This document shows positions 4,511-62,049 of a stretch of DNA of 64,000 bases, one piece after another. Source of the DNA: a virus; the IMG/VR virus record IMGVR_UViG_3300037420_002497. One strand, 5' to 3'. A model generated the notes under the pieces. That model had not been told where the DNA came from. It saw only the letters and a program-made list of their open reading frames with translations, and did not search any database. Positions within the stretch are counted from its first letter, which is position 1; every line of letters begins with the position of its first letter. Position numbers and translations under genes: made by a program.

Positions 4511-4744
4511 ATGAACGTCCGCACCGCCATCCGCATCGCCCGCGAGTTGCGCCCCGCGATCGGCGCCCATACGCGCCTGATCGGCAACAGCAACGCCACG
4601 CAGGAGCAGTACGAGGCAGCCGAGCTGGCCAGCTCCGAGGCTGTGTCCCTGGCGAAGTACCTGATCTGCCACCTGGACGATCGCCACGCCGCTGTGGTGT
4701 TCGCCCGTGCCGTGGGCATGCCCGGCTACATCAACCTGCGCTGA
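4511..4744 (+). CDS. hypothetical protein (77 aa)
   Basis: GGAGCCACCGCATG start context. Confidence 0.5.
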   Translation: MNVRTAIRIARELRPAIGAHTRLIGNSNATQEQYEAAELASSEAVSLAKYLICHLDDRHAAVVFARAVGMPGYINLR

Positions 4745-4782
4745 CCGGCAGCGCCGACCACCCCCACCCTCCAGGAGCCACC

Positions 4783-5178: not shown

Positions 5179-5215
5179 CCCTTCCACCACTCGACAGATT
5201 CGACAGGAGCACACC

Positions 5216-5731: not shown

Positions 5732-5761
5732 GCCCTTCCCCATCACTACAGGAGCTGCACC

Positions 5762-6169: not shown

Positions 6170-6255
6170 CCACCGTTGAAGTCGCCACAAGGTTGCGAGC
6201 CACCCTCCAGCGCCAGCCGGCGCCCGATCATCTGCACCCCCACCAGGAGCACCCC

Positions 6256-6519
6256 ATGACCACCAGCACCGCGAACATCGTTGAGATCCTGATCTGGGCC
6301 CCGCAGGTCTGCGGGGAGGACCACACCGGCGCCACGGTCGCCGAAGCGGTGGCCTATGCCGCCAGCCTGGGCGGCCACGCCCAGATCCTGGGCGCCGACT
6401 GGGAGCTGTCCTGGTTCGCGGACTCCACCGACCCCTGGAACTGGATCAAGGCCCGGGGCCCGGTGCCGGCGCACCATGCCCAGGAGCTGGAGCGGGCGCT
6501 GCGCGCGCTGGCCACCTGA
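6256..6519 (+). CDS. hypothetical protein (87 aa)
   Basis: internal start chosen at CAGGAGCACCCCATG; an intrinsic terminator follows. Confidence 0.5.
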   Translation: MTTSTANIVEILIWAPQVCGEDHTGATVAEAVAYAASLGGHAQILGADWELSWFADSTDPWNWIKARGPVPAHHAQELERALRALAT

Positions 6520-6540
6520 GCACCGAGCCCTGCGGCGCCA

Positions 6541-6565
6541 GCCCGGCCCAGCCGGGCTTTTTTTC
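6541..6565 (+). terminator. rho-independent terminator
   Basis: stem GCCCGGCCCAGCCGGGC followed by TTTTTTT. Confidence 0.7.
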
Positions 6566-6597
6566 GCCTGCGGCCCCTCGTTTGCATGGGAAGATGC

Positions 6598-6628
6598 TTG
6601 CGTTGATAGGCGCGCCGCCTATATGATC
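6598..6628 (+). promoter_or_regulatory. promoter-operator copy 2
   Basis: TTGCGT, then the palindrome at 6606-6622, then TATGAT; conserved leader GGCTCGCTCAACGCACCGGAGA. Confidence 0.6.
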
Positions 6629-6657
6629 GAGGCTCGCTCAACGCACCGGAGACCGAG

Positions 6658-7029
6658 ATGCCCAACTGGATTCGCCGCCCGCAGCTGATGGTCGAGACCC
6701 ACCACGAGCTGGTGTATGCGTCCCTGACGCACGCGGGCACCGAGTACCGCTTCACCTGCAACGAGAAGGGCGAAGTGGACCCGGCTGGGCAGACCGAAGC
6801 GCGGCAGCTGGCGCTGGCGCGCTGCGTCGCGGGCCTGGGCACCGCATACGCCCAGCCGCGTCTGGTCTCGCGCGAGCACAGCTGGTTCGACTCTGGCGCC
6901 ATCCGCTGCCACTGCGGCGCGCGCCACGAGCTGGAGCGCCACGACAGCACCTGCGACAGCTGCGGCCAGGACTACAACGGCTTCGGCCAGGAGCTGCGCC
7001 CGCAGTCGCAGTGGGAGGAGGACTACTGA
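6658..7029 (+). CDS. zinc-ribbon-like protein (123 aa)
   Basis: CHCG...C..C motif near the C-terminus; first ORF after the promoter. Confidence 0.6.
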   Translation: MPNWIRRPQLMVETHHELVYASLTHAGTEYRFTCNEKGEVDPAGQTEARQLALARCVAGLGTAYAQPRLVSREHSWFDSGAIRCHCGARHELERHDSTCDSCGQDYNGFGQELRPQSQWEEDY

Positions 7030-7078
7030 GTCCGCCACCCCTTCCACGCCTACCCGCAACCATCCCAGGAGCCACACC

Positions 7079-7750
7079 ATGAAGCCCACCAAAGCCGCCA
7101 CCAGCAACGCACGCAAGGCCCGCGCACAGCGCGCCGACGAGATCATCTGCACCGTTCCCCGCGAGGGAGACGGCGGCTGGTATCTGGATCTTTACTGGCT
7201 TTATTCCAATGGCCGCTATGGCGTCAGCGACACCGATGGGAACCACACCAGCTGCTACGCCCGCGAGCTGCCCAACGCCCGCGAGGAGGCGCAGGCGTGG
7301 CTGGACTATTCCCTGCACGTCGAGAGCACCGGCACCGATCCCCTGGGCGAGTTCAACATCAAGGCGGTGGAGCGCATCAACGAGCTGTGGCACTTCAGGG
7401 TCGAGCCGGATGCGCAAGGCAAGACCCGCGTCCTGGCCGCGCGCCACCACAACGACGCCGAGACCCCGCTGGACGCGCTGCCCGAGCACGTCACCGACTA
7501 CCTGCACCTGATCCCAGGCACGAACGTGTCCGATGACGACTGGACGGCAGTGGCCGACTTCCACGGGGTCAAGCCGGGCGACTGGCTGCAGGACACGGTG
7601 GAGTCCATCACACGCCGCCCGGACGGCGTGGTGCGCGCCGAGCTGATCGAGGCCGCCCGCGCCAGCGTGGAGCGCCAGCGCACGGCGCTGGAGTGGCTGC
7701 CTGCCCGCAAGCGGCGCACGAAGGCCACCCCCGCCCCAGCGCAACCCTGA
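7079..7750 (+). CDS. hypothetical protein (223 aa)
   Basis: CAGGAGCCACACCATG start context. Confidence 0.6.
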   Translation: MKPTKAATSNARKARAQRADEIICTVPREGDGGWYLDLYWLYSNGRYGVSDTDGNHTSCYARELPNAREEAQAWLDYSLHVESTGTDPLGEFNIKAVERINELWHFRVEPDAQGKTRVLAARHHNDAETPLDALPEHVTDYLHLIPGTNVSDDDWTAVADFHGVKPGDWLQDTVESITRRPDGVVRAELIEAARASVERQRTALEWLPARKRRTKATPAPAQP

Positions 7751-7765
7751 ACAGGAGCCACCACC

Positions 7766-7999
7766 ATGACCACGACCCAAGCACCAGCAGCCGAGTTGCG
7801 CCGCGCATGGCTTGTGCCAACGCCCGCCTGGACCCATCCCGCGTGGGTTGTCTGCGCACCCAGACCCATCACCGAGGATGACGCACGGCTGTCCGTCTTT
7901 GGCCCGGTGCCCGCCGGCTTCCCAACCGCGACGCACTTCTTCCCGGCCAACAGCGAGCAGGCCGGCAAGGAGCTGGTGGCGAGCCTGTTGGAGATATAG
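7766..7999 (+). CDS. hypothetical protein (77 aa)
   Basis: CAGGAGCCACCACCATG start context. Confidence 0.5.
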   Translation: MTTTQAPAAELRRAWLVPTPAWTHPAWVVCAPRPITEDDARLSVFGPVPAGFPTATHFFPANSEQAGKELVASLLEI

Positions 8000-8010
8000 G
8001 CGCGCCGCCC
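7996..8010 (+). promoter_or_regulatory. partial (half) copy of the operator palindrome
   Basis: ATAGGCGCGCCGCCC lacks the right arm; lies 30 nt upstream of full copy 3. Confidence 0.4.
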
Positions 8011-8031
8011 CTCGTTTGAGTGGTGATTCTC

Positions 8032-8062
8032 TTGATCGCATAGGCGCGCCGCCTATATGATC
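8032..8062 (+). promoter_or_regulatory. promoter-operator copy 3
   Basis: TTGATC, then the palindrome at 8040-8056, then TATGAT; same conserved leader as copy 2. Confidence 0.6.
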
Positions 8063-8092
8063 TGGGCTCGCTCAACGCAAACGGAGATCGAC

Positions 8093-9061
8093 ATGCAAGC
8101 CACCACCACCCGCACCGGCACCGCCTTCGACGACATGGACAGCGACCTGGGCGCGCTGGCCGGCGAGACCGCCGTCTACGTCCCGGGCGAAGGCCGCAAC
8201 CGTCGCGAGCCGCGCGAGGAGCTGGTGGCGCTGCACGAGGAGAAGTGCCCGAAGTGCCAGGGCTCGGGCCGCTTCCGGGGATTCACGGGCCGCCTGCTGG
8301 GCCAATGCTTCACTTGCCAGGGCGGCGGCAAGGTGTTCTTCAAGACCAGCGCCGTGCAGCGCGCCAAGTGCCGCGAGCAGGCCAAGGCGCGCGAGGAGCG
8401 CAAGCAGCAGGAGGCGCACAGCGCCTTCGCGGCCGAGCACCCGACCGAGTGGGCGTGGATGCGGGAGCGCGCCCTGCGCTGGGACTTCGCCCGCTCCATG
8501 GTCGAGGCGGTGGCCAAGTGGGGCCGCCTGACGGACGGCCAGCTGGCCGCCGTGCGCAAGTGCATCGCCAAGGATGCCGAGCGCGCCCAGCTGCGCGCCG
8601 CCGAGCAGCAGCAGCGCGCCGAGCTGGAGCGCACCGCCCAGGCGGTGAACATCGCCGCCGTCGAGGAAGCCTTCCAGCGCGCCAAGGACCGGCAGGTGAA
8701 TCGCCCGAAGCTGCGCCTTGCCGCCGATGCGGTGGAAGGCGCCGATGCGGCCGAGTACGTGTTCAGCCCGGCCGGCGAGAACAGCCGCAACGCCGGGTCC
8801 GTGTACGTCACCACCCGCCCGGAGCGCGGCGAGGAAGGGGTCTACCTGGGCAAGATCATGGGCGGCAAGTTCCTGAAGGTGCGCGACTGCAGCGCCGCCC
8901 AGGAAGCGCAGATCGTCGCCGTCGCATCCAACCCGGGCGAGGCCGCCAAGGCCTACGGGCAGCGCATCGGCGCCTGCAGCGTGTGCGGTCGCACCCTGAC
9001 GGACGGCACCAGCATCGACCTGGGCATCGGGCCGATTTGCGCAGAGCGCTACGGGTTCTAA
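8093..9061 (+). CDS. zinc-ribbon protein (322 aa) with C-terminal CxxCGRxLTDGTSIDLGIGPICA motif
   Basis: start placed by analogy with the other cassettes; motifs CPKCQGSG, CFTCQGGG and CSVCGR are present. Confidence 0.6.
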   Translation: MQATTTRTGTAFDDMDSDLGALAGETAVYVPGEGRNRREPREELVALHEEKCPKCQGSGRFRGFTGRLLGQCFTCQGGGKVFFKTSAVQRAKCREQAKAREERKQQEAHSAFAAEHPTEWAWMRERALRWDFARSMVEAVAKWGRLTDGQLAAVRKCIAKDAERAQLRAAEQQQRAELERTAQAVNIAAVEEAFQRAKDRQVNRPKLRLAADAVEGADAAEYVFSPAGENSRNAGSVYVTTRPERGEEGVYLGKIMGGKFLKVRDCSAAQEAQIVAVASNPGEAAKAYGQRIGACSVCGRTLTDGTSIDLGIGPICAERYGF

Positions 9062-29383: not shown

Positions 29384-29674
29384 TCACGCCGTTTGCGCGG
29401 TCTCCGCAGGGAGGCCGGGCGCCCCAGGACTGCCGATCAGCTCAGGCCAATGGATCGGCCAGTCGAGCGGGCGCAGCTTCCAGCGCGGCACCTGCCCGTT
29501 GGTTGCGCGCTCCACCTCGGCGCAGCGATACAGGGGAACGGCCTTCCACCCCTTTTCGTCGCGCTGCTTCTTCCACCGACTCACGACCACCGGGCTCACC
29601 CCCAGCTCGCGCGCAAGACGGGCTGCAAGGCCGCGCTCGGGCTGCATGAGGTACTGCCGGATGTCCATTTCCAT
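29384..29674 (-). CDS. YdaS/Cro-like HTH regulator (about 96 aa; a GTG at 29716 would give 110 aa)
   Basis: LARELGVSPVVVSRWKK...VPLYRCAEVERATNGQV...LRPLDW resembles YdaS/Cro-family proteins. Confidence 0.55.
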   Translation of the reverse strand: MEMDIRQYLMQPERGLAARLARELGVSPVVVSRWKKQRDEKGWKAVPLYRCAEVERATNGQVPRWKLRPLDWPIHWPELIGSPGAPGLPAETAQTA

Positions 29675-51019: not shown

Positions 51020-51222
51020 CCATCCGCCCGAAACAACCCCAACCTCGAAAGGAATGGGACCACCCAGCAAAAGCTGAGCGACAAAGAAAAAAGCCCTTGG
51101 GGGCCAACCCAAGAGCTTCTTCCGTATTGCTGACTTCCCCAGCGGAGCCACCCACATCGGAAATCCAGGAACCACCAAACAGCCTGGATTGTAGGGGTCT
51201 CGGGGAAGTGTGCAAGACGTAG

Positions 51223-52107
51223 TTGCGCACGTCCCTACGATCCATGAAGCTGCGCCCCCCCGCAGACCCGGGCCGCGACGAGTTTTCGCCGCTGCCGCCC
51301 CCCATCCAGGACGCCATACAGATCGGCCTGTTCGACAGCGCCACCACCCTGGACGCCCTGACCCACAACGAGACGCTGGCCCTGGCCGCCGTGCTGCGCG
51401 CGGTGGACTCCGACAAGCCCGGCGAGCCCTTCCGGGTGCTGGTGACCACGCTGATGGAGCGGCTTCACCGCAGCCGCCCGACCGTCACCCGCTACCTCAA
51501 AGCCCTTGTGGACAAAGGGTGGGTGACGCGCTGGCAGGTGAAAGCCAACAGCCGGCGCTGGGGCTTTCGCTGCGCCTGGATGCAGCTCACCGACGACGCC
51601 TTGGCCCACCTGTTCCAGCGTGCATCACTTTCGATCAACAGTTCTAAGCCTTCTCCTTCGGACAAGGGCAAGCGCTGGGTGCGGGTCCAAAAGAGGATTC
51701 CCAAAGACCTCAAGGCCCTGGAGAGCGTGATGACGCCGGCCAGGATCGTGTGGCTGATGGCCGAGGCCAAGGCCGCCGGGGTGCGGCTGCAGACCATCCT
51801 GGCGACGCACCTGGAGGACGTTCTCACCGCGCGCAAGCCCGCCGCGCGCCTCGCGCACCTCGTGTGGACCTGGAACAAGCCCAGCAACCGCCCGGCGTAC
51901 CAGCGGCGCCAGCAGGCCCAGGCCCGCAGCGGCTACACGGTGGAGGGCTCGATCACGAGCGCCAGCACCGTCGCCGAGCACCGCCAGAGCGAGGAGCTGC
52001 AGCAAAAGCTCAAGACCGACCAGCAGACCAAGAAGGCTCCCCCGGCGAACCTGCGCGAGCGCATGCGTCAGGCGGTGGCCGAGAACATGCTCCGCAAGGC
52101 CGCTTGA
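51223..52107 (+). CDS. winged-helix protein, putative plasmid-type replication initiator (Rep)-like (294 aa; an alternative ATG lies at 51241)
   Basis: TVTRYLKALVDKGWVTRW resembles a winged-helix motif; immediately followed by four phased GTTC repeats; parAB lies downstream. Confidence 0.45.
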   Translation: MRTSLRSMKLRPPADPGRDEFSPLPPPIQDAIQIGLFDSATTLDALTHNETLALAAVLRAVDSDKPGEPFRVLVTTLMERLHRSRPTVTRYLKALVDKGWVTRWQVKANSRRWGFRCAWMQLTDDALAHLFQRASLSINSSKPSPSDKGKRWVRVQKRIPKDLKALESVMTPARIVWLMAEAKAAGVRLQTILATHLEDVLTARKPAARLAHLVWTWNKPSNRPAYQRRQQAQARSGYTVEGSITSASTVAEHRQSEELQQKLKTDQQTKKAPPANLRERMRQAVAENMLRKAA

Positions 52108-52115
52108 TTACACAT

Positions 52116-52155
52116 TGTTCACACTATGTTCATGCGATGTTCTATACTTGGTTCC
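52116..52155 (+). repeat. iteron-like cluster A: four GTTC repeats at exact 11-bp spacing ending in TGTTCTATACT
   Basis: GTTCAC at 52117, GTTCAT at 52128, GTTCTA at 52139 and GTTCCG at 52150. Confidence 0.65.
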
Positions 52156-52189
52156 GCGTTGGTGATGCCACCGACAACTGGAGCGACAC

Positions 52190-52603
52190 ATGACGGACGA
52201 GCAGTGGACCGAGATTGAGCAGCGCAAGGCCGAGGTGTTGAAGGCGCTGGCGCCGCTGGGCTTTTCGGACCTGGACGATGGCGAGTTGCCCGGCGGGATC
52301 TACATCAGCGGCCACGCCCTGCTCCGCAAGCCCGGGATGCCCAGTCTCACCATCGACGTTGCGCGCTATGGATCGGTGGAGGCGCTGCTGAAGGAGGTGC
52401 TGGCCCTGGTGGCCAATCACGCCTTCCAGCTCGGCCACTCGGATATGCAATTCAGATTCCGCCAACTCATGAACGTGGCCGCGCCCGCGCCACGGGTGAC
52501 GCACTGGCAGATTGAGCAAGCCGAGGAGCAGGAGCGGCGCGCTCAGCAGCGGCTGGAGGAGCGCATGCGCCAGATCGCTCGTGAAGAAGTTCGCAGGAGC
52601 TGA
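52190..52603 (+). CDS. hypothetical protein (137 aa)
   Basis: GGAGCGACACATG start context, immediately downstream of iteron cluster A. Confidence 0.5.
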   Translation: MTDEQWTEIEQRKAEVLKALAPLGFSDLDDGELPGGIYISGHALLRKPGMPSLTIDVARYGSVEALLKEVLALVANHAFQLGHSDMQFRFRQLMNVAAPAPRVTHWQIEQAEEQERRAQQRLEERMRQIAREEVRRS

Positions 52604-52606
52604 GCC

Positions 52607-52801
52607 ATGGTGGCCCTACTTCGCGCGCCGGAACCCGGCACCACCCCCGCCGATCAACTGACGCCGCTGGATGCGCTGGCGCAGCTGGTCAAGGCCTTGA
52701 ACCACCCGGCGGACATGCCGGTGTGGCAGGTCAAGGAAAACCTCGCCAAGGCCGAGCGCGACGCGCAGCAGGTACTGGCCCAACACAAGCGAGACCACTG
52801 A
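52607..52801 (+). CDS. hypothetical protein (64 aa)
   Basis: GGAGCTGAGCCATG start context. Confidence 0.4.
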   Translation: MVALLRAPEPGTTPADQLTPLDALAQLVKALNHPADMPVWQVKENLAKAERDAQQVLAQHKRDH

Positions 52802-53226
52802 TGGAATTCAATCTGACCACGGGAGAATGGCACCAGGGCGTGGAGTTCGTGGTGCTGCCGCCGGGCACTTACGTCTGCGTGCTGAACCCCGAAAACGGAG
52901 CAGCCAACGTGATGGCGATCTGCGGCGCGGTGGTGGACGACGATGCCGAGCAGACCATCGCCAACGCCCGCGCCATGGCCGCCGCCAAGGACATGCTGGG
53001 CCTGCTGCCCAGCGCGCGACAGTTGCTGCTGCAATCCTTTGTTGGCGAGGCCAGCAAGCTGGAGCAGGCCGAGCTGCGGCGCGTGATCGACGCGATCGAC
53101 AGCGCTATCGCCAAGGGCACCGGCAAGCCGGTGGAATTGGTGCAGGCCGAGCTGGACATTGCCTACACCGAGATGGCCGCCGAGATCGCCGAGCGCGCGC
53201 GCATCGAAGCGGAGAGCAGGCCATGA
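52801..53226 (+). CDS. hypothetical protein (141 aa)
   Basis: TGATG overlap with the upstream gene. Confidence 0.5.
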   Translation: MEFNLTTGEWHQGVEFVVLPPGTYVCVLNPENGAANVMAICGAVVDDDAEQTIANARAMAAAKDMLGLLPSARQLLLQSFVGEASKLEQAELRRVIDAIDSAIAKGTGKPVELVQAELDIAYTEMAAEIAERARIEAESRP

Positions 53227-53516
53227 GCGACATCAAACCCTACAGCGCACGCCCCTGGCGGCTGGACGGCGACAAGGTGCTCGCCGCCGATGGCGAGATT
53301 GTCGTAGACCTCGTGGGGGTGCGCCCAGGCGATGCCCAGGTGCTTGCGCTGGCGCTGGACCTGCTCGATGCGGTGGAGCCGTTCGCCCAGCTGGCCAAAC
53401 ATCAGGGCAAGGTGGTGCAGATGAGCGGCGCCCTGCCGGCGACGCACCGCCCATTGTTCCTGGACGCCTTCCAGAAGGCCCTGGAAGCCCATCAAGCCGC
53501 AACCAAGGAGATGTGA
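53223..53516 (+). CDS. hypothetical protein (97 aa)
   Basis: ATGA overlap with the upstream gene. Confidence 0.45.
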   Translation: MSDIKPYSARPWRLDGDKVLAADGEIVVDLVGVRPGDAQVLALALDLLDAVEPFAQLAKHQGKVVQMSGALPATHRPLFLDAFQKALEAHQAATKEM

Positions 53517-53962
53517 TGCTCACCACGAATGTCGAAACCTTGACCCCCGAGATGCTGGCCGCGCTGCTGGACGGCAACCAGTACCGCAACGAGATGACCC
53601 CCATGGAGGAAGCCAACGCCAAGGCTTCCGGTTTGGTGGTGGTGTTCGGCGGCTCCGACGACCTGATCGAGTTCCGTGGCGCCATCGACGACGAGCAGGG
53701 CGCAGGCCAGGGCACCGAGATCCTGGTGGACGCCCGGGGCCTGCTACCAGACCGGGACAACATCGAGGACGACGACGAGCTGCAGGACTACTTCGCGCGC
53801 AAGCCCTGGGCCCGAACCATCACGACCGTGTGGGCCCAAGGCGACCATGCATGGCAGTACAGAACCGACATCCCGCACGCGACCTTTGAGGTCATGGACG
53901 ACGGCGAGAAGTATTGCAAGGGCATCGTGTTCCGCCTCGCCGACGCCGCCACGAGGCCGTGA
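53516..53962 (+). CDS. hypothetical acidic protein (148 aa)
   Basis: TGATG overlap with the upstream gene. Confidence 0.5.
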   Translation: MLTTNVETLTPEMLAALLDGNQYRNEMTPMEEANAKASGLVVVFGGSDDLIEFRGAIDDEQGAGQGTEILVDARGLLPDRDNIEDDDELQDYFARKPWARTITTVWAQGDHAWQYRTDIPHATFEVMDDGEKYCKGIVFRLADAATRP

Positions 53963-54216
53963 TGCAGTTGCTGGGCTACGCCGTTGTGTTCATCTGGCTT
54001 GCGCTGACGTTTTTCGTCCTGGCCATGTCCTTCATCCGCCTGTTCGGCTTTTTCCATGTCCAGCGCGGCCTGCAATTGGGTGCTGCATCCGTGACGAACC
54101 TCCTGGTGGCCCAGCATGCGCGCGAGCTGCCCTGGCTGATGTACGGCGTGTGCTTCCTCCTCCTTTACCTCGCATGGGAAGAAGCCATGCACCTTCTCTT
54201 GAGATCGAAACCATGA
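53962..54216 (+). CDS. small membrane protein (84 aa)
   Basis: two hydrophobic segments: VVFIWLALTFFVLAMSFI and WLMYGVCFLLLYLAW. Confidence 0.4.
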   Translation: MQLLGYAVVFIWLALTFFVLAMSFIRLFGFFHVQRGLQLGAASVTNLLVAQHARELPWLMYGVCFLLLYLAWEEAMHLLLRSKP

Positions 54217-55193
54217 CCGAACGGCGAGTGTTCTGGACCCCGGCACAGTGGTCCGAGGTGACCCATCGCGCTGCCGAGCTGATCGTGCACAGCGGGTACA
54301 AAGAGCTGCAGGCGCTGCGCCAAGCAGCCGATGAAATGCCGGAAGGGCTGCAGCGCCACTTCCATCAGCTCAGCAAGGCGCCCGAGTTCCTGAAGCGCCT
54401 GCCGGCCGAGCTGGCGTCGCAACGGCACCTCCTGGAGCACAACCTGCAGCACGCGGTCCAGGCACCGCCACCGCCGGCCGAGGCGCCGCCGCCGGCACCG
54501 GCGCCGACCCCAGGGCCCGAACCCACTCCGGCGGCCGAGCTGGCACCAGAACCCGAGCCCGCACCAGCCCCCGCACCTGAGCAGGAGCCGGAACCCGAGC
54601 CCGCACCTGCGCCGGTGAAGCGCGCCCGCAAACGGCGAGCGCCAGCACCCTTCCATGGGCTGATGCCAGAACCCGAGCCCGCACCGGCCCCAGCTGTGCC
54701 AGCCATCGACCCGCTGGCCGACTCGCTGTTTGGAGGGCTGAAGGCGCTGATGCTGCAGGTGCTGCAGTCGCCAGAGGGGCAGGCTGCGATCGCCACAGCC
54801 ATCGCCTCCCAGCGTCAGGCCCAAGCGGCTGCGCCCGCCCAGGCGACAGTCACCGTGAGCTATGCGGCCGAGAAGAAGCCTCGCGTGCTGATCGTTGGCG
54901 CCTTGCCCGTGCAGGCCGCCTCCATCCATCAGCAGTTCTCGGACAAGGCGCGGCTGGAGTTCCTGCGCTCCAGCGAGGCCAGCGAGCGCATGAAGGCCCA
55001 CGCCAAAAGCGCCGACTACACCTTCAGCCTGCGCAGCTACATCAGCGCCACCGCCGACAAGCTGCTGCTCAAGTACAGCAAGCGCTACGAGCGCATCAGC
55101 GGGGCCGGCGACATGCTGAGCACTGCCTTGACCCGGATGCTCAATCTGCGCGAGGTCGATCGCGCCAAACCGGAGAACTACCGTGACCAGTGA
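54213..55193 (+). CDS. protein with a P/E/A low-complexity linker (PEPEPAPAPA repeats), 326 aa
   Basis: DNA-level tandem repeats GAACCCGAGCCCGCACC lie within the ORF. Confidence 0.5.
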   Translation: MTERRVFWTPAQWSEVTHRAAELIVHSGYKELQALRQAADEMPEGLQRHFHQLSKAPEFLKRLPAELASQRHLLEHNLQHAVQAPPPPAEAPPPAPAPTPGPEPTPAAELAPEPEPAPAPAPEQEPEPEPAPAPVKRARKRRAPAPFHGLMPEPEPAPAPAVPAIDPLADSLFGGLKALMLQVLQSPEGQAAIATAIASQRQAQAAAPAQATVTVSYAAEKKPRVLIVGALPVQAASIHQQFSDKARLEFLRSSEASERMKAHAKSADYTFSLRSYISATADKLLLKYSKRYERISGAGDMLSTALTRMLNLREVDRAKPENYRDQ

Positions 55194-55371
55194 ACTGAAG
55201 AAGTGCATTGCACGGAACGAGCCGTGCATCAACCCGGGCCGCTGCGTAATGCTCCGGGCCTGCCTGCAGCGGCAAGTGAGCCCGGCCATCGTGCCGCAGC
55301 CAAAGGCTGACCGCGAGCCGTTCAAGTCCGCCCGCCATTGCCCACTGGACCACGACAGCGAGGAGATGTGA
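55183..55371 (+). CDS. small Cys-rich protein (62 aa), GTG start
   Basis: CxxxxxCxNPGRC motif. Confidence 0.35.
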   Translation: MTSELKKCIARNEPCINPGRCVMLRACLQRQVSPAIVPQPKADREPFKSARHCPLDHDSEEM

Positions 55372-55372
55372 G

Positions 55373-55882
55373 GTGGACATCCATGCCATCCTGACTCGTG
55401 CGCCGATCAACAAGCTGGCGGCCAGCGTGATAGCCCGGCGCCGCGAATCCGGGCCCGAGGCGCCGCTGACCAGAGAGGAGCTGAGCTACCTGATGCAGCA
55501 TGCGGCGCGCAAGCAGCAACTGCTGAAGCGGGTGCTTGGCATCCACAACGACCGGCAGCACAAGAACGTCACCTACCGTGCGGCCAAGGGCATGAAGCAG
55601 TTCCGCGCCCAATCCCCCGCCCTGGCCGAGTACCTAGCGCTGGGTCAGACGATCCACAGGTTCACGCTTGAGCTGAGCGAGCTGCGCAAGCAGCGGCGCC
55701 AAGAGGCGCAACTCACTCCAGAGGAGCAGGCGCTGGCGAAACAGCGCCGCCGCGAGCGGATATTCAGGCGCGGGCAGGCGTTTATTGATGTCGCCAAGGA
55801 ACGACTACCCGAGGAGCAGTTCAGGAGCTTCATGGAAGAAGCCATGAGGCGAGCAGACCCCGAAGAAGGACCGGCAGCATGA
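55373..55882 (+). CDS. hypothetical basic protein (169 aa), GTG start
   Basis: ORF inside the gene run. Confidence 0.45.
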   Translation: MDIHAILTRAPINKLAASVIARRRESGPEAPLTREELSYLMQHAARKQQLLKRVLGIHNDRQHKNVTYRAAKGMKQFRAQSPALAEYLALGQTIHRFTLELSELRKQRRQEAQLTPEEQALAKQRRRERIFRRGQAFIDVAKERLPEEQFRSFMEEAMRRADPEEGPAA

Positions 55883-56277
55883 CCAAAGCCAAGACCGAGC
55901 CCAAGCGCAAGAGCTTTGAGATGCGCAAGCTCAAGTACGCCGACTGGATCGCCGAGGGCGAGCAGCGCTTCGGCGCCGACAGGATGCAGTGGCGCTTCGT
56001 GTGCCCGATCTGTCGCCATGTCGCCACCGTTAAGGATTGGAAGGATGCCGGCGCCCCGGAAGGGTCTGTTGCATTCGCCTGCGTGGGTCGCTGGACTGGC
56101 ACTCGTGAAGCCCCCGCCAGGGACGCCTTTGGCGGCAAGGGCAAGGGCCCCTGCAACTACACCGGCGGCGGCTTGTTTGCGCTCAACCCGGTGCAGGTCG
56201 AGCTGGAGGACGGCAAGACGGCCGGGGCCTTTGAGTTCGACGGCGCCCAGCCGGAAGCCCAGGCCGCCCAGGAGTGA
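55879..56277 (+). CDS. Cys-containing hypothetical protein (132 aa)
   Basis: ATGA overlap with the upstream gene; CPICRH...C motif. Confidence 0.5.
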   Translation: MTKAKTEPKRKSFEMRKLKYADWIAEGEQRFGADRMQWRFVCPICRHVATVKDWKDAGAPEGSVAFACVGRWTGTREAPARDAFGGKGKGPCNYTGGGLFALNPVQVELEDGKTAGAFEFDGAQPEAQAAQE

Positions 56278-56280
56278 ACG

Positions 56281-56430
56281 ATGAAGACAAGCAACCAGCA
56301 GCCGGTCACGCGCAAGGACAATAGGCCCTGCCCGAATCGGCCCAAGGGCGAGCGCTGCCCGGTGTGCGGCGGCAGCTACGTCTGCCTCCACTCCTGGCGG
56401 CCAAAGAAACTCACCGGGAAGAAGGCCTGA
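56281..56430 (+). CDS. tiny zinc-ribbon protein (49 aa)
   Basis: AGGAG lies 7 nt upstream of the ATG; CPNRPKGERCPVCGGSYVC motif. Confidence 0.35.
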   Translation: MKTSNQQPVTRKDNRPCPNRPKGERCPVCGGSYVCLHSWRPKKLTGKKA

Positions 56431-56433
56431 GCC

Positions 56434-56655
56434 ATGGAAAGGTACGCCGGCAACCAGATTCTGGGGGCCCCCGAGGGCTACTACTGGCACCCGTGGGACG
56501 GCGAGGTCGAGCTGGTGGAGTTGAAGCACCGCGAGAGATTTCGCGACACCAATGTGCGCCGATTCGGTGAAACCCATGGCCGCTGGGCCTACGGTTTCTC
56601 GCAAGAGTTCGTGCTGGTCGGCCCAATCCTTCCCCCTGACGAAGCGAGGTCGTGA
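56434..56655 (+). CDS. hypothetical protein (73 aa)
   Basis: ORF inside the gene run. Confidence 0.45.
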   Translation: MERYAGNQILGAPEGYYWHPWDGEVELVELKHRERFRDTNVRRFGETHGRWAYGFSQEFVLVGPILPPDEARS

Positions 56656-56906
56656 TGGCAGAGAAGATCCGTCCGTGCATGGGTGGCATCGTTCGCCACT
56701 CCTGGTACTTCATCCGCAACGTCGAGCAAGTTGAGCTGGGCCCCAGCAGCGGCAGCTTCAAGCTCAGGGGGCGCTACGGCTGCCGCAACCCCGGCTGCGC
56801 CGCCCGCAAGTATGGCCCGCCACAGACGACGAAAGAGCCCGGCGACACCTCTCCACTGCTCGATGTGATTGAGCGGCTGAGCGGCCAATCTGGCGGCAAA
56901 GAGTAG
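56652..56906 (+). CDS. hypothetical protein (84 aa)
   Basis: overlaps the upstream gene. Confidence 0.4.
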   Translation: MMAEKIRPCMGGIVRHSWYFIRNVEQVELGPSSGSFKLRGRYGCRNPGCAARKYGPPQTTKEPGDTSPLLDVIERLSGQSGGKE

Positions 56907-56928
56907 GCAACATTATCTGGAGTACCAC

Positions 56929-57561
56929 ATGACTGATGCTCAGCTTGAGCAGTACCTGCCCGTGGCTAGGTCCACCGGCAAACCCCAGGTGTGGCTGTCC
57001 AAGGCCGACGCCATCCAGGCGATCCGCGCAGCCCTGGCTGCTGCAGAGGACGAATTCGTGACGTTCAACCTGGGAGGCGGCGCCGGCTGCATCAAGGTCG
57101 CTGATGTGGACGTGCCCACCTTGGCGAATTGCCTGCGAGCCCTGGCCGGCGCCCCGCAGGCGCAGCCGGATGCAGTGACCATCCCTCGCGCCACTGCGGA
57201 GAGCTTGTTGGGTTTCGCGGATTCGATGCTGACGCTCACCCGGCAGCCGGCGTCCGTGCAAATCCTGCGCGATGCCCTGGCCGCCCCGCAGGCGCAGCCG
57301 CAAGTGACGGAAGCCATGGTTGATGCGGCTGAAGGATTCTTCACGGCCTACAACGCCCGCGACTTGGCGCGCCGGACGCTGGAAGCCGCCCTGGCCGCCA
57401 CCCCGCAGGCGCAGCCGCAGAAACGGCACAAGCGCCCCCTCACGCGCTGCGCAGCCAACAGGGATGGAGACTGCTGCCACCCGGACTGCCCCCAGGTGCG
57501 CGATGGCGAGCCAAAAAAGTCGGGGCGGGACTGCCCGCTGGACTACCCCCGCGAATATTGA
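56929..57561 (+). CDS. protein with three A(P/T)PQAQPQ repeats and a C-terminal Cys cluster (210 aa)
   Basis: GGAGTACCACATG start context. Confidence 0.5.
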   Translation: MTDAQLEQYLPVARSTGKPQVWLSKADAIQAIRAALAAAEDEFVTFNLGGGAGCIKVADVDVPTLANCLRALAGAPQAQPDAVTIPRATAESLLGFADSMLTLTRQPASVQILRDALAAPQAQPQVTEAMVDAAEGFFTAYNARDLARRTLEAALAATPQAQPQKRHKRPLTRCAANRDGDCCHPDCPQVRDGEPKKSGRDCPLDYPREY

Positions 57562-57577
57562 CCTTGGATTAGCCCAC
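57562..57577 (+). promoter_or_regulatory. upstream motif CCTTGGATTAGCCCAC (copy 1) overlapping a TTGACC -35-like box
   Basis: near-identical motif at 58206-58222. Confidence 0.4.
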
Positions 57578-57596
57578 CTGTTATTTAGGGGTGAAT

Positions 57597-58199
57597 ATGA
57601 AGATGAGACAGCGAAAGGCGCGGTACTGGCGCCGCCTGTTTGCCCGTCTGGACAACTGCGAGGTCTGCAAAGGCTGGCGCGGCGGCGTGCGCGGCAATGA
57701 GAACCGGGTCGATGGCGTCGTGATGTGTGACGCCTGCACCTCGGACCACCAGCGGCCGGGCTTGGTCGCCACGGCAGGCGAGTTCCTGGGGTGCGAGGCC
57801 CCCCTGCCCGACTGCATGAACCCGGACCTGTGCGCCACGCTGGGCGCGTGCATCGGCATGTCGCGCAGCGCGATTGCGGAGCGGGAACTGGCCGCGAGCT
57901 TGGCGAAGGGTCTGCGTGAGGTTGGAGAGCACGCCGAGGGCAAGCTGGCCCTGAAAGAAACGATGGTGCAGGGGCCGCACGTCGAGGGCGACAAGAGCAT
58001 TGCCGTCTGCCATGAATGCCGCGAGGTCGTGGATACCACGCTCAAGCGCCGCGACGTGCCTTTCAGTGACGGGAGCGGCGTGGTGCGCGACATCCTGGCC
58101 GCCGTGTGCGACGTGTGCGGCAGCGTGGTTGCGATCCCGGCGTGCTCGGCACCCACCATCAAGGCGGCCCGGGAGGCCCAGGCAAAGCCCGCCTCGTGA
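57597..58199 (+). CDS. zinc-ribbon protein (two CxxC pairs at each end), about 200 aa
   Basis: AGGGGTG RBS; CEVCKG...CDAC and CHEC...CDVCG motifs. Confidence 0.5.
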   Translation: MKMRQRKARYWRRLFARLDNCEVCKGWRGGVRGNENRVDGVVMCDACTSDHQRPGLVATAGEFLGCEAPLPDCMNPDLCATLGACIGMSRSAIAERELAASLAKGLREVGEHAEGKLALKETMVQGPHVEGDKSIAVCHECREVVDTTLKRRDVPFSDGSGVVRDILAAVCDVCGSVVAIPACSAPTIKAAREAQAKPAS

Positions 58200-58205
58200 A
58201 TCCAG

Positions 58206-58222
58206 CCTTGGAATTAGCCCAC
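58206..58222 (+). promoter_or_regulatory. upstream motif CCTTGGAATTAGCCCAC (copy 2)
   Basis: matches 57562-57577. Confidence 0.4.
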
Positions 58223-58242
58223 ATATCAAAGAGGAAACCGAC

Positions 58243-58488
58243 ATGGAACATGAGTTCAGCCTGCTGTTCAGGCTTCCCCCCGGGGCCGACGACATGCGCA
58301 AGATCATGGACGCACTGCTGAAGGCCGAGTGCACGGACGCCCTGGTTGGCTTTGGCAACATCGACAAAGCCGAGCTGTCGCTTGACTTCATCCGCGAGGG
58401 CGAGTCACCCGAGGCAGCCCGCAAAAGCGCCATCAATGACGTGCTGCGAGCACTGCCTGGGGCGCAGCTACTGGAGGAGCACCGTTGA
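58243..58488 (+). CDS. hypothetical protein (81 aa)
   Basis: AGAGGA RBS. Confidence 0.45.
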   Translation: MEHEFSLLFRLPPGADDMRKIMDALLKAECTDALVGFGNIDKAELSLDFIREGESPEAARKSAINDVLRALPGAQLLEEHR

Positions 58489-58982
58489 GCAAGCTCACCG
58501 AACTGGAGAAAGAGATCGTCCGCATCGCCGAGGAGATCAACAGGGTTGGCGACCTGTGCCACCTCGTTGACTACGACCCGGACATTGGCCAAGTACCTGA
58601 GCACTTCAGGCCCAATGCCGAAGTGCTGGCGCTGGTCAAGCAGTTGCTGGCCGACACCAAGACCAACGCCGCGACCGTCATCAAGGCGGTCGCCGAGTAC
58701 GGCAAGCGCTTCGACAACCCGAACGGCCTGCCCACCCCGTTCAGCGCCGGCTTCTCGCTGGCGTGCGAGGAGATCGAGGTCCGGCTGCTTGGCGAGCGCA
58801 CCGACCTGCCGCCTTTCCCGCGCATGACGCCTGAGCAGGTGCAGCAGTGCATCCAGGAGGCGGACAAGACCAGTGGCGCCTATCAGCGCACGCCCTGGGC
58901 CACCTTGCTGGTCTACATCGTTGAGGACGCACTCGCCAAGGCATGGGGCATCACGCTACCGACCACGGAGACCAAAGCATGA
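58485..58982 (+). CDS. hypothetical protein (165 aa), TTG start
   Basis: GGAGGAG lies 5 nt upstream of the TTG. Confidence 0.5.
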   Translation: MSKLTELEKEIVRIAEEINRVGDLCHLVDYDPDIGQVPEHFRPNAEVLALVKQLLADTKTNAATVIKAVAEYGKRFDNPNGLPTPFSAGFSLACEEIEVRLLGERTDLPPFPRMTPEQVQQCIQEADKTSGAYQRTPWATLLVYIVEDALAKAWGITLPTTETKA

Positions 58983-59233
58983 GAGCCAAGCTGATCGGTG
59001 GCCCACTACACGGACAGAGCGTGTTCGTTCATGCCTTGAAGCAGGGGCAGCTGCAGAGCCAGCATGCGTTCTATCGGTACGACGGCACGTTGTACGTACA
59101 CCGAATGTGGATCGACCCCGAAGGGCGCTACGTCCTGGTGCTGGTGGACGCCAGCCTGGATCTGGGCGAAGCCTCCGAAAAGATCCGGCAGGCGATGGAG
59201 CCGAACGCCACGCAGCTTCGGCGGGTGGCTTGA
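58979..59233 (+). CDS. hypothetical protein (84 aa)
   Basis: ATGA overlap with the upstream gene. Confidence 0.45.
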   Translation: MRAKLIGGPLHGQSVFVHALKQGQLQSQHAFYRYDGTLYVHRMWIDPEGRYVLVLVDASLDLGEASEKIRQAMEPNATQLRRVA

Positions 59234-59246
59234 CCCGGGGGCCATG

Positions 59247-59290
59247 GTTCACATTTAGTTCACTCTCGGTTCATTCTGTGTTCTATACTA
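59247..59290 (+). repeat. iteron-like cluster B: four GTTC repeats at 11-bp spacing ending in TGTTCTATACT
   Basis: GTTCAC at 59247, GTTCAC at 59258, GTTCAT at 59269 and GTTCTA at 59280; last 20 nt nearly identical to cluster A. Confidence 0.65.
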
Positions 59291-59333: not shown

Positions 59334-59588
59334 ATGGATACGGAACTGGAGCAGCTGCGCCGCACACTGGATGCCATCCGGCACCGCGCGCAGTGCACCG
59401 ACACCGGCATGGGCGCGGACATCCTCAAGATCCTCGCCGACGCGCCTGTTGGATCGTCCAACAAGGCGCTGACGCCCGAGGAGCAGGCGGCGCTCAAGTG
59501 GGCGCTGGAGCAGCAGTTCCAGTCGGTCTCGGCGCGCTATGCCCGAACGCTGGCGAAGCTCGTGCAGCACCTCTACCCGCAGCCATGA
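59334..59588 (+). CDS. hypothetical protein (84 aa)
   Basis: GGAGAA RBS; contains a palindrome site. Confidence 0.45.
   Translation: MDTELEQLRRTLDAIRHRAQCTDTGMGADILKILADAPVGSSNKALTPEEQAALKWALEQQFQSVSARYARTLAKLVQHLYPQP
59447..59463. promoter_or_regulatory. dispersed palindrome site 4 (TGTTGGATCGTCCAACA), inside a CDS
   Basis: one mismatched arm position. Confidence 0.45.
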
Positions 59589-59620
59589 ACTACCAACAAA
59601 GGGAGATCCCCATGCCCCGG

Positions 59621-60019
59621 AGCAAAGCGCTCCTCACCCAAGAGCAGTTCGATGCCGCCATCCGCCAGGGTGGCGTCATGAAGGACCACAACATCGAGCT
59701 GGCGCGCCAGATCCTGGTGCTGGGCGTGCCGAACAACGCTGCGGCCAAGGCGGCCGACGTGCTGCCATCCCAGGCCAGCACGATCGTCAAGCGGGTGCTG
59801 CAGTACCACCAGACCGCCCTGACCCTGAAGAAGACCGCCGCGCAGTTCATGGCCGAGAAGCCGCCGCGTGAGCAGGTGATCGAGGCGCTGCGCCCCGAGC
59901 TGCTGAAGCTGCACAAGGCCAAGTACACGGTCGAGCAGCTGATCGAGTTCCTGGCGGCCAATGACGTGCACGCGAACCGCAAGGAAGTCCTCGCGATCAT
60001 CGAAGGGAGCAACCCGTGA
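59621..60019 (+). CDS. hypothetical protein upstream of parA (132 aa; an alternative ATG lies at 59585)
   Basis: AAGGGAG RBS lies 6 nt upstream. Confidence 0.45.
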   Translation, partial: SKALLTQEQFDAAIRQGGVMKDHNIELARQILVLGVPNNAAAKAADVLPSQASTIVKRVLQYHQTALTLKKTAAQFMAEKPPREQVIEALRPELLKLHKAKYTVEQLIEFLAANDVHANRKEVLAIIEGSNP

Positions 60020-60846
60020 GCAAGACCCTCAAGAGCCTGATGCTGGTCGCCCAGAAGGGTGGCGTGGGCAAGACCGCGATCGCCACGCTGCTGGCGCACT
60101 ACCTCGCCCTGCTGCGCGGCAAGCGCGTGCTGGTGATCAACCTGGACCACCAGAAGAACCTCGTGCGCCCGCTGTCGCAATCCGGCAAGGTCACGATGTC
60201 GGCCATCACCAGCGACAAGCTGCTGACCGACCCGGCCGCCGATGTCGAGGCCGCGCCCTACGTGCTGGTGCCCGGCGACAAGGACGCACTGGAGAGCCTG
60301 GAGCGCCAGCCCGACCGGCACAACGCCTTCGCCGGCAACTTCCGTGCGTTCCTCAAGCGCATGGAAGGCCGCTTCGACGTGGTGATCGTGGACACCAACC
60401 CGAACCCGGACATCCGCGTCCTGGCCGCGATGGTCAGCATCGACTACGTGCTGGCGCCGATCCAGCTCAACCAGGAGAGCATCGACGGCATCGCCGACCT
60501 GTTCAACGGCAAGCGCGTGGGGATCGGCCGCATCCGCGCCACGCTCAACAAGCAGCTCAAGTTCCTGGGCATGCTGCCCAACCTCGTGAAGCCGGTGCCG
60601 TTCCAGCGCACGAACCTGGAGAAGCTGCTGGCCGTGCCCGAGTACCGGGCGCAACTGATGTCGATGGTCGATGACCCGACCGAGATCAGCCAGCTGGCCC
60701 GCATCCCCGACCGCACCGTGATCGCCGAGATCCAGGCCAGCGGCAAGGTGCTGTGGGAGGTGAAGGACAAGACCGCCGCGCGCGACGCCTGGGCCGAGAT
60801 CAAGCCGGTCATGGACCGCATCGCGCATCTCATGGGCGTGCAGTGA
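60016..60846 (+). CDS. parA: ParA/MinD-family partition ATPase (276 aa)
   Basis: deviant Walker A AQKGGVGKTAIA; GTGA overlap with the upstream gene. Confidence 0.75.
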   Translation: MSKTLKSLMLVAQKGGVGKTAIATLLAHYLALLRGKRVLVINLDHQKNLVRPLSQSGKVTMSAITSDKLLTDPAADVEAAPYVLVPGDKDALESLERQPDRHNAFAGNFRAFLKRMEGRFDVVIVDTNPNPDIRVLAAMVSIDYVLAPIQLNQESIDGIADLFNGKRVGIGRIRATLNKQLKFLGMLPNLVKPVPFQRTNLEKLLAVPEYRAQLMSMVDDPTEISQLARIPDRTVIAEIQASGKVLWEVKDKTAARDAWAEIKPVMDRIAHLMGVQ

Positions 60847-60884: not shown

Positions 60885-61916
60885 ATGAGCATCGACCTTT
60901 CGCAATCCCTGGACCTGGGCGACCTGAGCGCCACCGCCGCCACCGGCGAGCCGCTGAAGCTGTGGGCCGCCACCATCCGGCCCAGCCGCTGGGCCAACCG
61001 CCACGAGCTGAGCTTCCTGAGCCCGGAGTTCAACGCCCTGAAGGAGGAGATCAAGAACGCGGGCGGCAACGTCCAGCCGATCAAGGTGCGCCCGCTGGCG
61101 CAGCCCGAGGACGGCGTGGAGTACGAGGTGGTGTTCGGCCACCGCCGCCACCGCGCCTGCCTGGAGCTGGGCATCGAGGTGGCCGCCGTGGTCGAGGCCG
61201 TGGACGACCAGCATCTGTGGGCGCAGATGGAGCGCGAGAACCGCGCCCGCGAGCCGCTGTCGGCCTACGAGCAGGGGACGATGTACCAGCGCGCGATGGA
61301 CGAAGGGCTGTTCCCGTCCATCCAGGCGCTGGCCAAGGCGATCGGCCGCAGCGCGGGCGACATCAGCAAGGCCATCTCCATCGCCCGGCTCCCGCCCGAG
61401 GTGGTGCAGGCCTTCGGCTCACCCCAGGACATCGGGTTCCGCGACGCCAAGCCGCTGAAGGACGCGGTGGAGGCGGCGCCCGAGGCGGTGGCCCAGGCCG
61501 CCCGCGCGCTGGCCGCCGTGCCCCAGGCGCTGCCGCCGAAGGTGGTGGTGCAGCGGCTCGCCGCCGCCGCCGGCATGGCCGATGACGACCAGAACGAAGC
61601 CGAGGAGGAGCCGGCCGAGGCGGCTGTTGGACGGTCCAACAAGGCCAAGGCAGCGCCCGCGCCGAGCCCGGCAGCGCCAGCTGTTGGGCCGTCCAACAAG
61701 CCCGCGCCGGCCCCGAAGGCGGCCCCGGTTGCGCACCTGCGGGTGGTGGTCGAGGTCGGCGAGGAGCTGATGGAGCTGGTCACCGACTGCCGCCCGAAGC
61801 GGGGCCTGATCCCGGTGCGGCCAGTGGCCAGCGATGAGGCGCCGCAGTACCTGCCGGCGGGCAAGGTGCGCATCGTCCGTGCCGAGGCCCAGGCGCCCCG
61901 CACGTTTACGGGTTAA
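60885..61916 (+). CDS. parB: ParB-like partition protein (343 aa)
   Basis: N-terminal ParB/Srx-like motif VVFGHRRHRACLELG; follows parA; CAGGAGCCACACATG start context. Confidence 0.65.
   Translation: MSIDLSQSLDLGDLSATAATGEPLKLWAATIRPSRWANRHELSFLSPEFNALKEEIKNAGGNVQPIKVRPLAQPEDGVEYEVVFGHRRHRACLELGIEVAAVVEAVDDQHLWAQMERENRAREPLSAYEQGTMYQRAMDEGLFPSIQALAKAIGRSAGDISKAISIARLPPEVVQAFGSPQDIGFRDAKPLKDAVEAAPEAVAQAARALAAVPQALPPKVVVQRLAAAAGMADDDQNEAEEEPAEAAVGRSNKAKAAPAPSPAAPAVGPSNKPAPAPKAAPVAHLRVVVEVGEELMELVTDCRPKRGLIPVRPVASDEAPQYLPAGKVRIVRAEAQAPRTFTG
61625..61641. promoter_or_regulatory. dispersed palindrome site 5 (TGTTGGACGGTCCAACA), inside the parB 3' region
   Basis: perfect palindrome. Confidence 0.5.
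61682..61698. promoter_or_regulatory. dispersed palindrome site 6 (TGTTGGGCCGTCCAACA), inside the parB 3' region
   Basis: one mismatch. Confidence 0.45.
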
Positions 61917-62049
61917 CCCGGGAAGTGAGCGCACGCCCCGGGAAAACTCCGGGTAACTCCTACCGTTCAAGGGCGGCATCCTTGCTCGCGATGATTCCGT
62001 TGCCGTTTAGCGGCAACAATGCCCACCGCGAAAGAAGAAAGGATGTCGC

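Follow-up and report, generated by a model that had tools for sequence, protein, structure and literature searches.

The GTTC arrays

The 64,000-nucleotide stretch of the virus record IMGVR_UViG_3300037420_002497 (IMG/VR), hereafter called the window, contains two short arrays of GTTC repeats, clusters A and B. Cluster A follows the gene of a winged-helix protein, g106, and precedes a string of small genes; cluster B is located 7.1 kb further downstream, in front of the partition genes. The clusters are probably two copies of one promoter-operator cassette, which heads two consecutive rightward operons of a circular conjugative Burkholderiales replicon of approximately 122.7 kb. All positions are numbered according to the window, which has a GC content of 68% and carries approximately 133 small, tightly packed genes. 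The hexamer TATACT, found at the end of both arrays, was taken as positions −12 to −7, and the positions of the repeat units are given relative to the start site inferred in this way. The arrays consist of the following features:

52117–52148, plus strand: cluster A cassette with the units GTTCACACTAT (52117), GTTCATGCGAT (52128) and GTTC (52139), fused to TATACT (52143–52148)
52151–52154, plus strand: extra GTTC of cluster A, 12 bp past the third unit, at about −4 and out of register
59247–59289, plus strand: cluster B cassette with the units GTTCACATTTA (59247), GTTCACTCTCG (59258), GTTCATTCTGT (59269) and GTTC (59280), followed by TATACT (59284–59289)

The first-pass annotation had described four GTTC motifs with a period of exactly 11 bp in each cluster. 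This is correct for cluster B, in which the motifs start at 59247, 59258, 59269 and 59280. In cluster A only the first three motifs (52117, 52128 and 52139) follow the 11-bp period. The fourth starts at 52151 and not at 52150; it lies downstream of the TATACT hexamer and has no equivalent in cluster B. The common end ascribed to the two clusters is present and is longer than had been claimed, reading GTTCAC-N5-GTTCAT-N4-TGTTCTATACT-N-GG. When the two modules are anchored on TATACT, 24 of the 33 positions from −45 to −13 are identical (73%). The identical positions are found mainly in the periodic GTTCA(C/T) cores, with some matches also outside the GTTC cores.

GTTC and GAAC were indexed on both strands, and runs were counted at spacings of 10–12 bp. 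Apart from clusters A and B, neither strand of the window has a run of three or more motifs. Mononucleotide shuffles gave 0.003 such runs per shuffle, and a run of four was obtained in none of 300 shuffles. The JGI and Logan assemblies, which are independent of each other, agree letter for letter in both arrays, and these are therefore not assembly artefacts. Taken together, the restriction of the runs to these two sites, their rarity in shuffled DNA and the identical second assembly show that the GTTC repeats are real and beyond chance. No further GTTC run was found in the scanned 79.9 kb of the replicon of approximately 122.7 kb. Tandem Repeats Finder reported neither array A nor array B, and no iteron-like array near either of them. 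Of all 40-bp stretches of the window, the two arrays have the highest AT content.

Promoter features of the two cassettes

In both cassettes GTTC units are located at −38, −27 and −16, and cluster B contains an additional unit at −49, which stays in the exact 11-bp register. The units at −38 and −27 read GTTCA(C/T) and the unit at −16 reads GTTC. The TATACT hexamer, which would be the −10 element of the predicted promoter, occurs three times on the plus strand of the 64 kb and not at all on the minus strand. All three copies are intergenic and lie 38–50 nt ahead of a start codon; the third copy is a member of a separate six-copy promoter family described below. As annotated in the first pass, each cluster is placed shortly ahead of a small gene, with 41 nt (A) and 44 nt (B) between the hexamer and the ATG. 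The leaders of both cassettes are 35–38 nt long, and GGAG is found 8–10 nt ahead of the ATG. The whole arrangement is accommodated in intergenic spacers of 82 and 100 bp.

The sequence TCTATACTTGG of cluster A matches 9 of 11 positions, and TCTATACTAGG of cluster B 8 of 11 positions, of the published sigma-S-type extended −10 consensus TCTATACTTAA (PMC3367168). By this comparison TCTATACTT fits a sigma-S-type extended −10 element. The match implies that the last GTTC, at −16, would double in part as the promoter T(−14)C(−13). The best −35-like hexamers, TTCACA in A and TTCACT in B, are each located 19 bp upstream of TATACT. AT-rich arrays in DNA with 68% GC are what would be expected of promoter cores.

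The operons behind the clusters

The following genes and sites are found downstream of the two arrays:

52190–59233, plus strand: inferred operon A, genes g107–g123 and an open reading frame (ORF) of 49 amino acids called by JGI, together 18 tightly packed small genes
59334–59588, plus strand: g124, orphan of 84 amino acids and first gene after cluster B, which holds a 17-bp palindrome at 59447–59463
59612–60019, plus strand: g125, KorA/TrfB-type helix-turn-helix (HTH) protein, a borderline match to PF16509 (26.6 bits against a cut-off of 26.7)
60016–60846, plus strand: ParA/IncC-type ATPase, the first 4 nt of which are shared with the end of g125
60885–61916, plus strand: ParB/KorB-type protein with ParB_N and SopB_HTH domains
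61625–61698, no strand assigned: two copies of the 17-bp palindrome TGTTGGAC(C/G)GTCCAACA, starting at 61625 and 61682, in the 3′ part of parB

The 18-gene string behind cluster A ends at cluster B, and no convincing plus-strand terminator was found in operon A before this cluster. Clusters A and B thus appear to be the heads of two consecutive rightward transcription units. The product of g125 is 52–54% identical to that of the gene which opens the par operon of four related loci (L019, L028, L029 and L032), which implies that cluster B occupies the promoter/operator place of those operons. Cluster B is an array at a predicted partition-operon promoter, and the same units recur at a second predicted promoter, that of cluster A before g107–g123, as would be expected of a regulon. 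The genes g107 and g124, which directly follow the arrays, have no homolog or paralog in any of the fetched loci, and their products contain no domain at E ≤ 0.1. Among the scanned small proteins encoded in or near both operons, recognised DNA-binding folds were found only in g106, g125 and ParB.

A KorA/TrfB-family gene directly upstream of the ParA/IncC and ParB/KorB genes is the arrangement of the IncP-1 control operon, and the gene order resembles that of korA-incC-korB in RK2. A further likeness to RK2 is that one palindrome is dispersed in multiple copies over the replicon, like the OB sites. The 17-bp palindrome has seven copies against 0.09 expected. Besides the two copies within parB, it occurs at 59447 (inside g124), 62451, 11745, 28882 and 37461 and is thus clustered in and around parB. 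These palindromes are likely to be ParB/KorB-type centromere/operator sites, distinct from the GTTC arrays. Since their distribution is as expected of such sites, it is unlikely that the GTTC arrays serve as the centromere of ParB. The korA promoter of RK2 carries palindromic OA and OB operators, and korA is nested in incC. In contrast, the predicted par-operon promoter of the window carries direct repeats, the nearest palindrome being 163 bp downstream, inside g124; the orphan g124 precedes the KorA-like gene, which is not nested in parA. An inverted repeat, GTTGCCG-TTTAG-CGGCAAC, is present just downstream of parB, at 62005–62023; it resembles the TTTAGC half-site of the IncP OA/OB operators (RK2).

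Proposed function of the cassettes

The possibility that the clusters are two operators of one regulator was raised in the first-pass annotation as a second choice. It is now the best-supported reading, since the units of both cassettes keep the same register to the predicted −10 element and a fixed distance to the first gene of the operon. Each cassette would contain the −10 element TCTATACT, of the sigma-S/sigma-70 extended −10 type, and would lack a canonical −35 element. The GTTCA(C/T) units, repeated every 11 bp, would occupy the −35 position and the spacer on one face of the helix. Cassette A would drive the expression of g107–g123, and cassette B that of g124, the KorA-like gene, parA and parB. 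We infer one trans-acting DNA-binding protein that would attach cooperatively to the units in head-to-tail order. Such a shared regulator would co-regulate the partition/control operon and the small-gene block upstream of it. Because the units cover the −35 position and the −14 region, repression by occlusion of these regions is given a slight preference over class-II-type activation of a −35-less promoter, which is a serious alternative. The candidate binders are g106, g125, g124 and a host regulator of the OmpR/PhoB type. The reuse of promoter cassettes elsewhere in the replicon, namely the six-copy family with its palindromic operator, supports the proposal. Functional precedents for the proposed mode of action are StbA of R388 with its stbDR arrays, ParR of R1 with parC, and TorR with its tGTTCa-containing direct repeats, all of which are compared with the cassettes below.

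Several observations speak against two operators of one regulator. There are only two arrays. The likeness of the cassettes could partly stem from promoter duplication and not from selection on protein-binding units. A generic sigma-70 scan reports no promoter at either array, which is due to the lack of a −35 element within 16–18 bp. Pfam and PHROG scans of the par-operon genes and approximately 15 operon A genes (g112, g114 and the 49-amino-acid ORF not included) detected no ribbon-helix-helix (RHH), StbA, ParR or PadR domain. Furthermore, GTTC arrays are absent from the par promoters of all 80 related Burkholderiales ParB loci, and no relative examined in the genome, viral and metagenome scans carries GTTC arrays. 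With only two arrays and none in relatives, the proposal has no comparative support.

Comparison with related replicons

No match to the 50–60 kb region (megablast) or to g106 (tblastn) was found in phage or plasmid collections, and scans with the KorA-like protein gave nothing in viral or metagenome contigs. The motif GTTC-N7-GTTC-N7-GTTCTATACT has 16 matches in viral contigs. These belong to two unrelated families and are, by a rough estimate, at about chance level. The 19 matches in metagenome contigs are mostly low-GC tandem arrays that fit the motif by construction. The metagenome contigs L110, L112, L113 and L123, which have 23–43% GC, contain the 11-bp unit GTTCTATACT(A/C) in long and perfectly repeated tandem series; these were recovered only because the search pattern selects such arrays, and the contigs are unrelated. 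One match in a metagenome contig of 68% GC (L115) adjoins the 3′ end of a chromosomal RNase P RNA and was rejected as a chance match.

The par promoters of L019, L028 and L029 carry the palindrome ACAATTnATTGT instead of a GTTC array. A phased GTT in L019 was discarded as a candidate, since the near-identical promoters of L028 and L029 vary in the middle unit and preserve the palindrome and not the GTT. Three other loci have direct repeats of their own. In L032 (4700–4735) GGAATTAC occurs twice, 11 bp apart, before the KorA-like gene; in L027 (980–1115) ATATCA is found three times, at 10 and 30 bp, before parA; and in L026 (2340–2400) CATTCGTTC occurs twice at 12 bp before parA. The pair in L026 stands beside the closest g106 homolog; it is part of a type-Ib parA promoter with an RHH gene adjacent, so that it need not relate to g106. 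The repeats of L032, L027 and L026 indicate that predicted direct-repeat operators are common in this replicon neighbourhood, the GTTCA version being unique to the replicon studied here.

Comparison with known regulatory systems

Control of the two promoters by the host, either through boxes for a chromosomal regulator of the OmpR/PhoB family or through sigma-S-type promoters that need no −35, is an unlikely explanation of the arrays. Under such control the operons of the plasmid would respond to the physiology of the host. The arrays are direct repeats with a period of 11 bp placed over the −35 position without a −35 consensus, as in tandem-box promoters, in which cores of 6–7 bp recur every 10–11 bp. 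TorR binds direct repeats containing tGTTCa (PMC9239176). The units of the window, (T/G)GTTCA(C/T), contain this core of the tor boxes, and the likeness to TorR and PhoB boxes extends to the phasing of about one helical turn and to the replacement or overlap of the −35 in a promoter with a good −10. Tandem repeats at the −35 position are also the geometry of pho boxes, and the geometry of a PhoB-type class II activator is close to the unit positions −38 and −27. The match of the −10 to the sigma-S extended consensus would also agree with host control, as would the failure of the domain scans to pick out a plasmid-encoded binder. TorR and PhoB boxes differ in being chromosomal and activated by host response regulators, whereas in the arrays one unit also overlaps −14/−13, and the window showed no gene for a response regulator. 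Host control is further opposed by the absence of GTTC arrays at the par promoters of the 80 related loci and by the fact that the genome, viral and metagenome scans found the motif with TATACT in a related context nowhere else. In addition, promoters of plasmid backbones are usually under the control of plasmid-encoded regulators.

Rather unlikely, too, is a dual role of the arrays as operators and centromere-like or pairing sites in the style of R1 ParR/parC and R388 StbA/stbS. In this case transcription control would be combined with the formation of a segregation complex or with the pairing of the two loci over 7.1 kb. StbA of the IncW plasmid R388 is a cooperative repressor with a winged-HTH-like fold. 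It represses five promoters through arrays of 2–10 units, each of 9 bp with a 2-bp spacer and hence of 11-bp period, and smaller sets of 2–5 units are found at other maintenance and leading-region promoters (PMC3098194; bioRxiv 10.1101/2022.04.29.490116). The likeness to the stbDR repeats lies in 11-bp-period direct repeats around the promoter of a stability operon, with further sets elsewhere. Clusters A and B, with three and four units spaced by about one helical turn, have the form of such stability-regulon operators, and their same-face repeats at a predicted partition-operon promoter, with a second set at another promoter, share the architecture of parC and stbS. Moreover, relatives of g106 adjoin type-Ib par loci, the promoters of which have short direct repeats. 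The R388 unit is TTGCATCAT and the unit of the window GTTCA(C/T), no StbA homolog was recognised, and the main site of R388 has two sets of five units, compared with three to four units here. In R1, the 11-bp repeats of parC serve as operator in autoregulation and as centromere and are bound by ParR (PMC2241845). The likeness to R1 likewise consists of 11-bp direct repeats at a par promoter. There, ten repeats flank the promoter and the RHH protein is encoded in the operon; in the window, three to four repeats lie over the predicted promoter core, and neither an RHH protein nor ParM was found among the scanned genes. The par system of the window is a classical ParA/ParB pair with a large HTH ParB and its own palindromic sites, and the 17-bp palindrome around parB is the obvious candidate for the centromere/operator set, which argues against a centromere function of arrays that have 3–4 units, where parC and stbS have 10.

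The winged-helix protein g106

The gene directly upstream of cluster A and its leader have the following positions:

51084–51243, plus strand: structured leader of g106, a hairpin followed by GGATTGT and by a GC-rich hairpin enclosing the start codon
51244–52107, plus strand: g106, 287 amino acids, candidate array binder, with an N-terminal winged helix (residues ~19–124), a helical domain (154–210) and a long C-terminal helix

Cluster A begins 9 nt after the stop codon of this ORF, as annotated. The ORF had been given the limits 51223–52107; the end at 52107 holds, and the ATG at 51244 is a more likely start than the TTG at 51223, the JGI call also being of 287 amino acids. Of the designation of the product as winged-helix and Rep-like, the first term is borne out and the second is tentative. 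A winged helix is present in the structure model calculated from the family alignment (predicted local distance difference test score, pLDDT, of 80.6; the single-sequence model had a pLDDT of 45 and was unusable). Fold searches with g106 returned the winged helices of MarR, CodY, TubR, DnaD and RepA_N type without discrimination. Word-indexed protein searches with g106 and g125 recovered only the query proteins themselves, and an exhaustive search yielded 74 remote homologs of g106. For this family, profile matches were limited to winged-helix models of a generic kind (MarR, HTH_36, HVO_A0261_N and IclR). No replication-initiator family was found above threshold in Pfam, NCBIfam, PDB and fold searches. 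The PHROG matches to O-like and DnaD-like replication proteins are weak (E = 2e-4 to 4e-3).

The genomic context tells more about g106 than the fold searches do. The g106 family neighbours partition genes in L021, L026 and L027. Homologs with 48% and 45% identity adjoin small type-Ib ParA genes in L026 and L027, respectively, the latter locus also carrying a holin and an endolysin gene, and a homolog with 29% identity is encoded upstream of ParA and ParB in a conjugative element of Azohydromonas aeria. No GTTC array follows the g106 homologs in L021, L026 and L027, and hence nothing ties the g106 family to the repeats. The protein is a member of an uncharacterised winged-helix family encoded beside partition genes, which would suit either an initiator or a maintenance regulator.

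The leader of g106 has a fold z-score of −3.25, and the start codon is not preceded by a Shine-Dalgarno sequence. The leader hairpin and the GGATT core (GGATT(C/G)TG) are conserved in three other loci (L021 7440–7640, L026 85–260 and L027 65–240). The first hairpin, which shows compensatory stem changes, can also be read as a minus-strand terminator (51092–51105). Just upstream of the hairpin, the window has a mini-ORF of seven codons, MGPPSKS*, which starts near 51055; of the other loci, only L021 showed such a mini-ORF (MGP...). Rfam gave no match anywhere in the window, the g106 leader included. The conservation of the leader suggests antisense or translational control.

It is doubtful, but conceivable, that g106 acts as initiator and regulator at the same time. 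The protein would then bind the GTTCA arrays head-to-tail, each two-domain monomer covering two 11-bp units, and the arrays, 7.1 kb apart, would serve as operators of the small-gene and korA-parAB operons and as handcuffing or copy-control sites. Replication control, partition and expression would in that case be coupled in a replicon with conjugation and phage packaging genes.

DnaA-box-like units and the iteron origin

The view that the cassettes are paralogous promoter copies without a dedicated binder, their phasing being due to common descent, intrinsic curvature or weak DnaA-box-like 9-mers, is improbable. It would account for the 73% identity of the cassettes from −45 to −13, with its matches outside the GTTC cores, and for the presence of only two copies. 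It also draws on two units, TTGTTCACA and TGGTTCACA, which match 8 and 7 of 9 positions, respectively, of the relaxed DnaA box TTWTNCACA, whereas most units match only 4–6 of 9. The concentration of the identity in the periodic GTTCA(C/T) cores, the exact register of the extra unit of cluster B and the absence of a run of four from 300 shuffles argue against this view.

The first-pass annotation had favoured an iteron origin with a copy-control locus. With g106 as the initiator, cluster A would be oriV or an incA-like set and cluster B a handcuffing set. The origins of P1, F and RK2 and the incA-type loci indeed show direct repeats beside a winged-helix gene and a second related set, and in P1 the iterons directly follow repA. 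The winged helix and second helical domain of g106, the partition genes beside its family, the weak PHROG matches and the structured, conserved leader, which is common in tightly controlled initiators, are also in accordance with such an origin. Iterons are typically 17–22 bp long, each being bound by a Rep monomer. The arrays have a period of 11 bp and a conserved core of 6 bp, GTTCA(C/T), and thus half of the usual length. Iteron origins are composed of DnaA boxes, iterons and a DNA unwinding element with 13-mers (PMC4980987). No AT-rich unwinding element was found, and the AT-richness does not reach beyond the 40 bp that each array occupies; the 82- and 100-bp spacers are fully used by array, −10, leader and ribosome-binding site and leave no room for one. 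Neither spacer holds a DnaA box TTATCCACA, even with one mismatch allowed; the closest one lies inside g106 (51507–51515). Cumulative GC skew, which had been suggested as a further check, is flat from 35 to 64 kb, with no turn at 51–52 kb. In contrast to the P1, F and RK2 origins, each of the two sets is joined to a predicted −10 hexamer, and the spacing to the next start codon is fixed. Since the unwinding element, the DnaA box and the skew turn are missing, the period is short, and the homologs of g106 are free of arrays, an iteron origin at the clusters, for which the sequence offers no Rep family at threshold, is not supported and is very improbable.

The replicon and other features of the window

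The window is derived from contig Ga0395902_0000093 of a JGI metagenome (122,796 bp). Window positions 1–8988 correspond to record positions 113809–122796, and positions 8862–64000 to record positions 1–55139. The contig has a terminal overlap of 127 bp (window 8862–8988), the junction of which is spanned by the window, and this overlap implies a circular molecule of approximately 122.7 kb. Right of the window a NikA-like protein, a MOBP-type relaxase and a VirB-type type IV secretion system are encoded; left of the window a phage portal protein, a large terminase, an HNH protein and GP88 are found. Relatives of ParB with 46–70% identity occur in conjugative elements of Azohydromonas, Ideonella, Variovorax and other Burkholderiales. 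The replicon is either a conjugative plasmid with a prophage-like module or a conjugative phage-plasmid.

A six-copy promoter cassette is located on the plus strand at 3959, 6607, 8041, 10464, 13748 and 17836. It consists of CTTGC(G/A), the palindromic operator TAGGCGCG(C/G)CGCCTA between −35 and −10, a −10 element TATGAT (TACT in the last copy) and the conserved leader GGCTCGC. Most members are preceded by a terminator, GCCCGGC...GGGCTTTTTTT. The six copies have the look of a second regulon. Members of a third family of palindromes, TAGCCAATGGCTA / TTAGCCGTTGGCTTAA, are found at approximately 29330, 29685, 29775, 30775 and 62545. They are concentrated in the divergent region around a Cro/YdaS-like HTH gene (29384–29674, minus strand), which looks like a phage-type genetic switch.

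At the left end, window positions 1–1300 and 3300–3560 contain GC-rich tandem repeats with units like GCACCAGGG and periods of 7–8, 18 and 37 nt. These repeats would encode collagen-like Gly-X-Y repeats on the minus strand; positions 1–1300 have no JGI gene call. The block from 1300 to 3900 has a lower GC content (~58–61%) and carries phage-like genes on the minus strand, which were missed by the GC3-based gene caller.

Significance

With the iteron origin set aside, a false lead on the location of the origin is removed. If clusters A and B are two operators of one regulator, one shared repeat operator would co-regulate the partition/central-control operon with the 18 small genes of a 7-kb block. 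The logic would be that of the IncW StbA and IncP KorA/KorB regulons, realised with unrelated sequences. This is a known regulatory design in a new sequence, and no general concept is changed by it. For an uncharacterised family of Burkholderiales conjugative elements, the analysis provides two compact predicted promoter fragments and a short list of proteins that may bind them.

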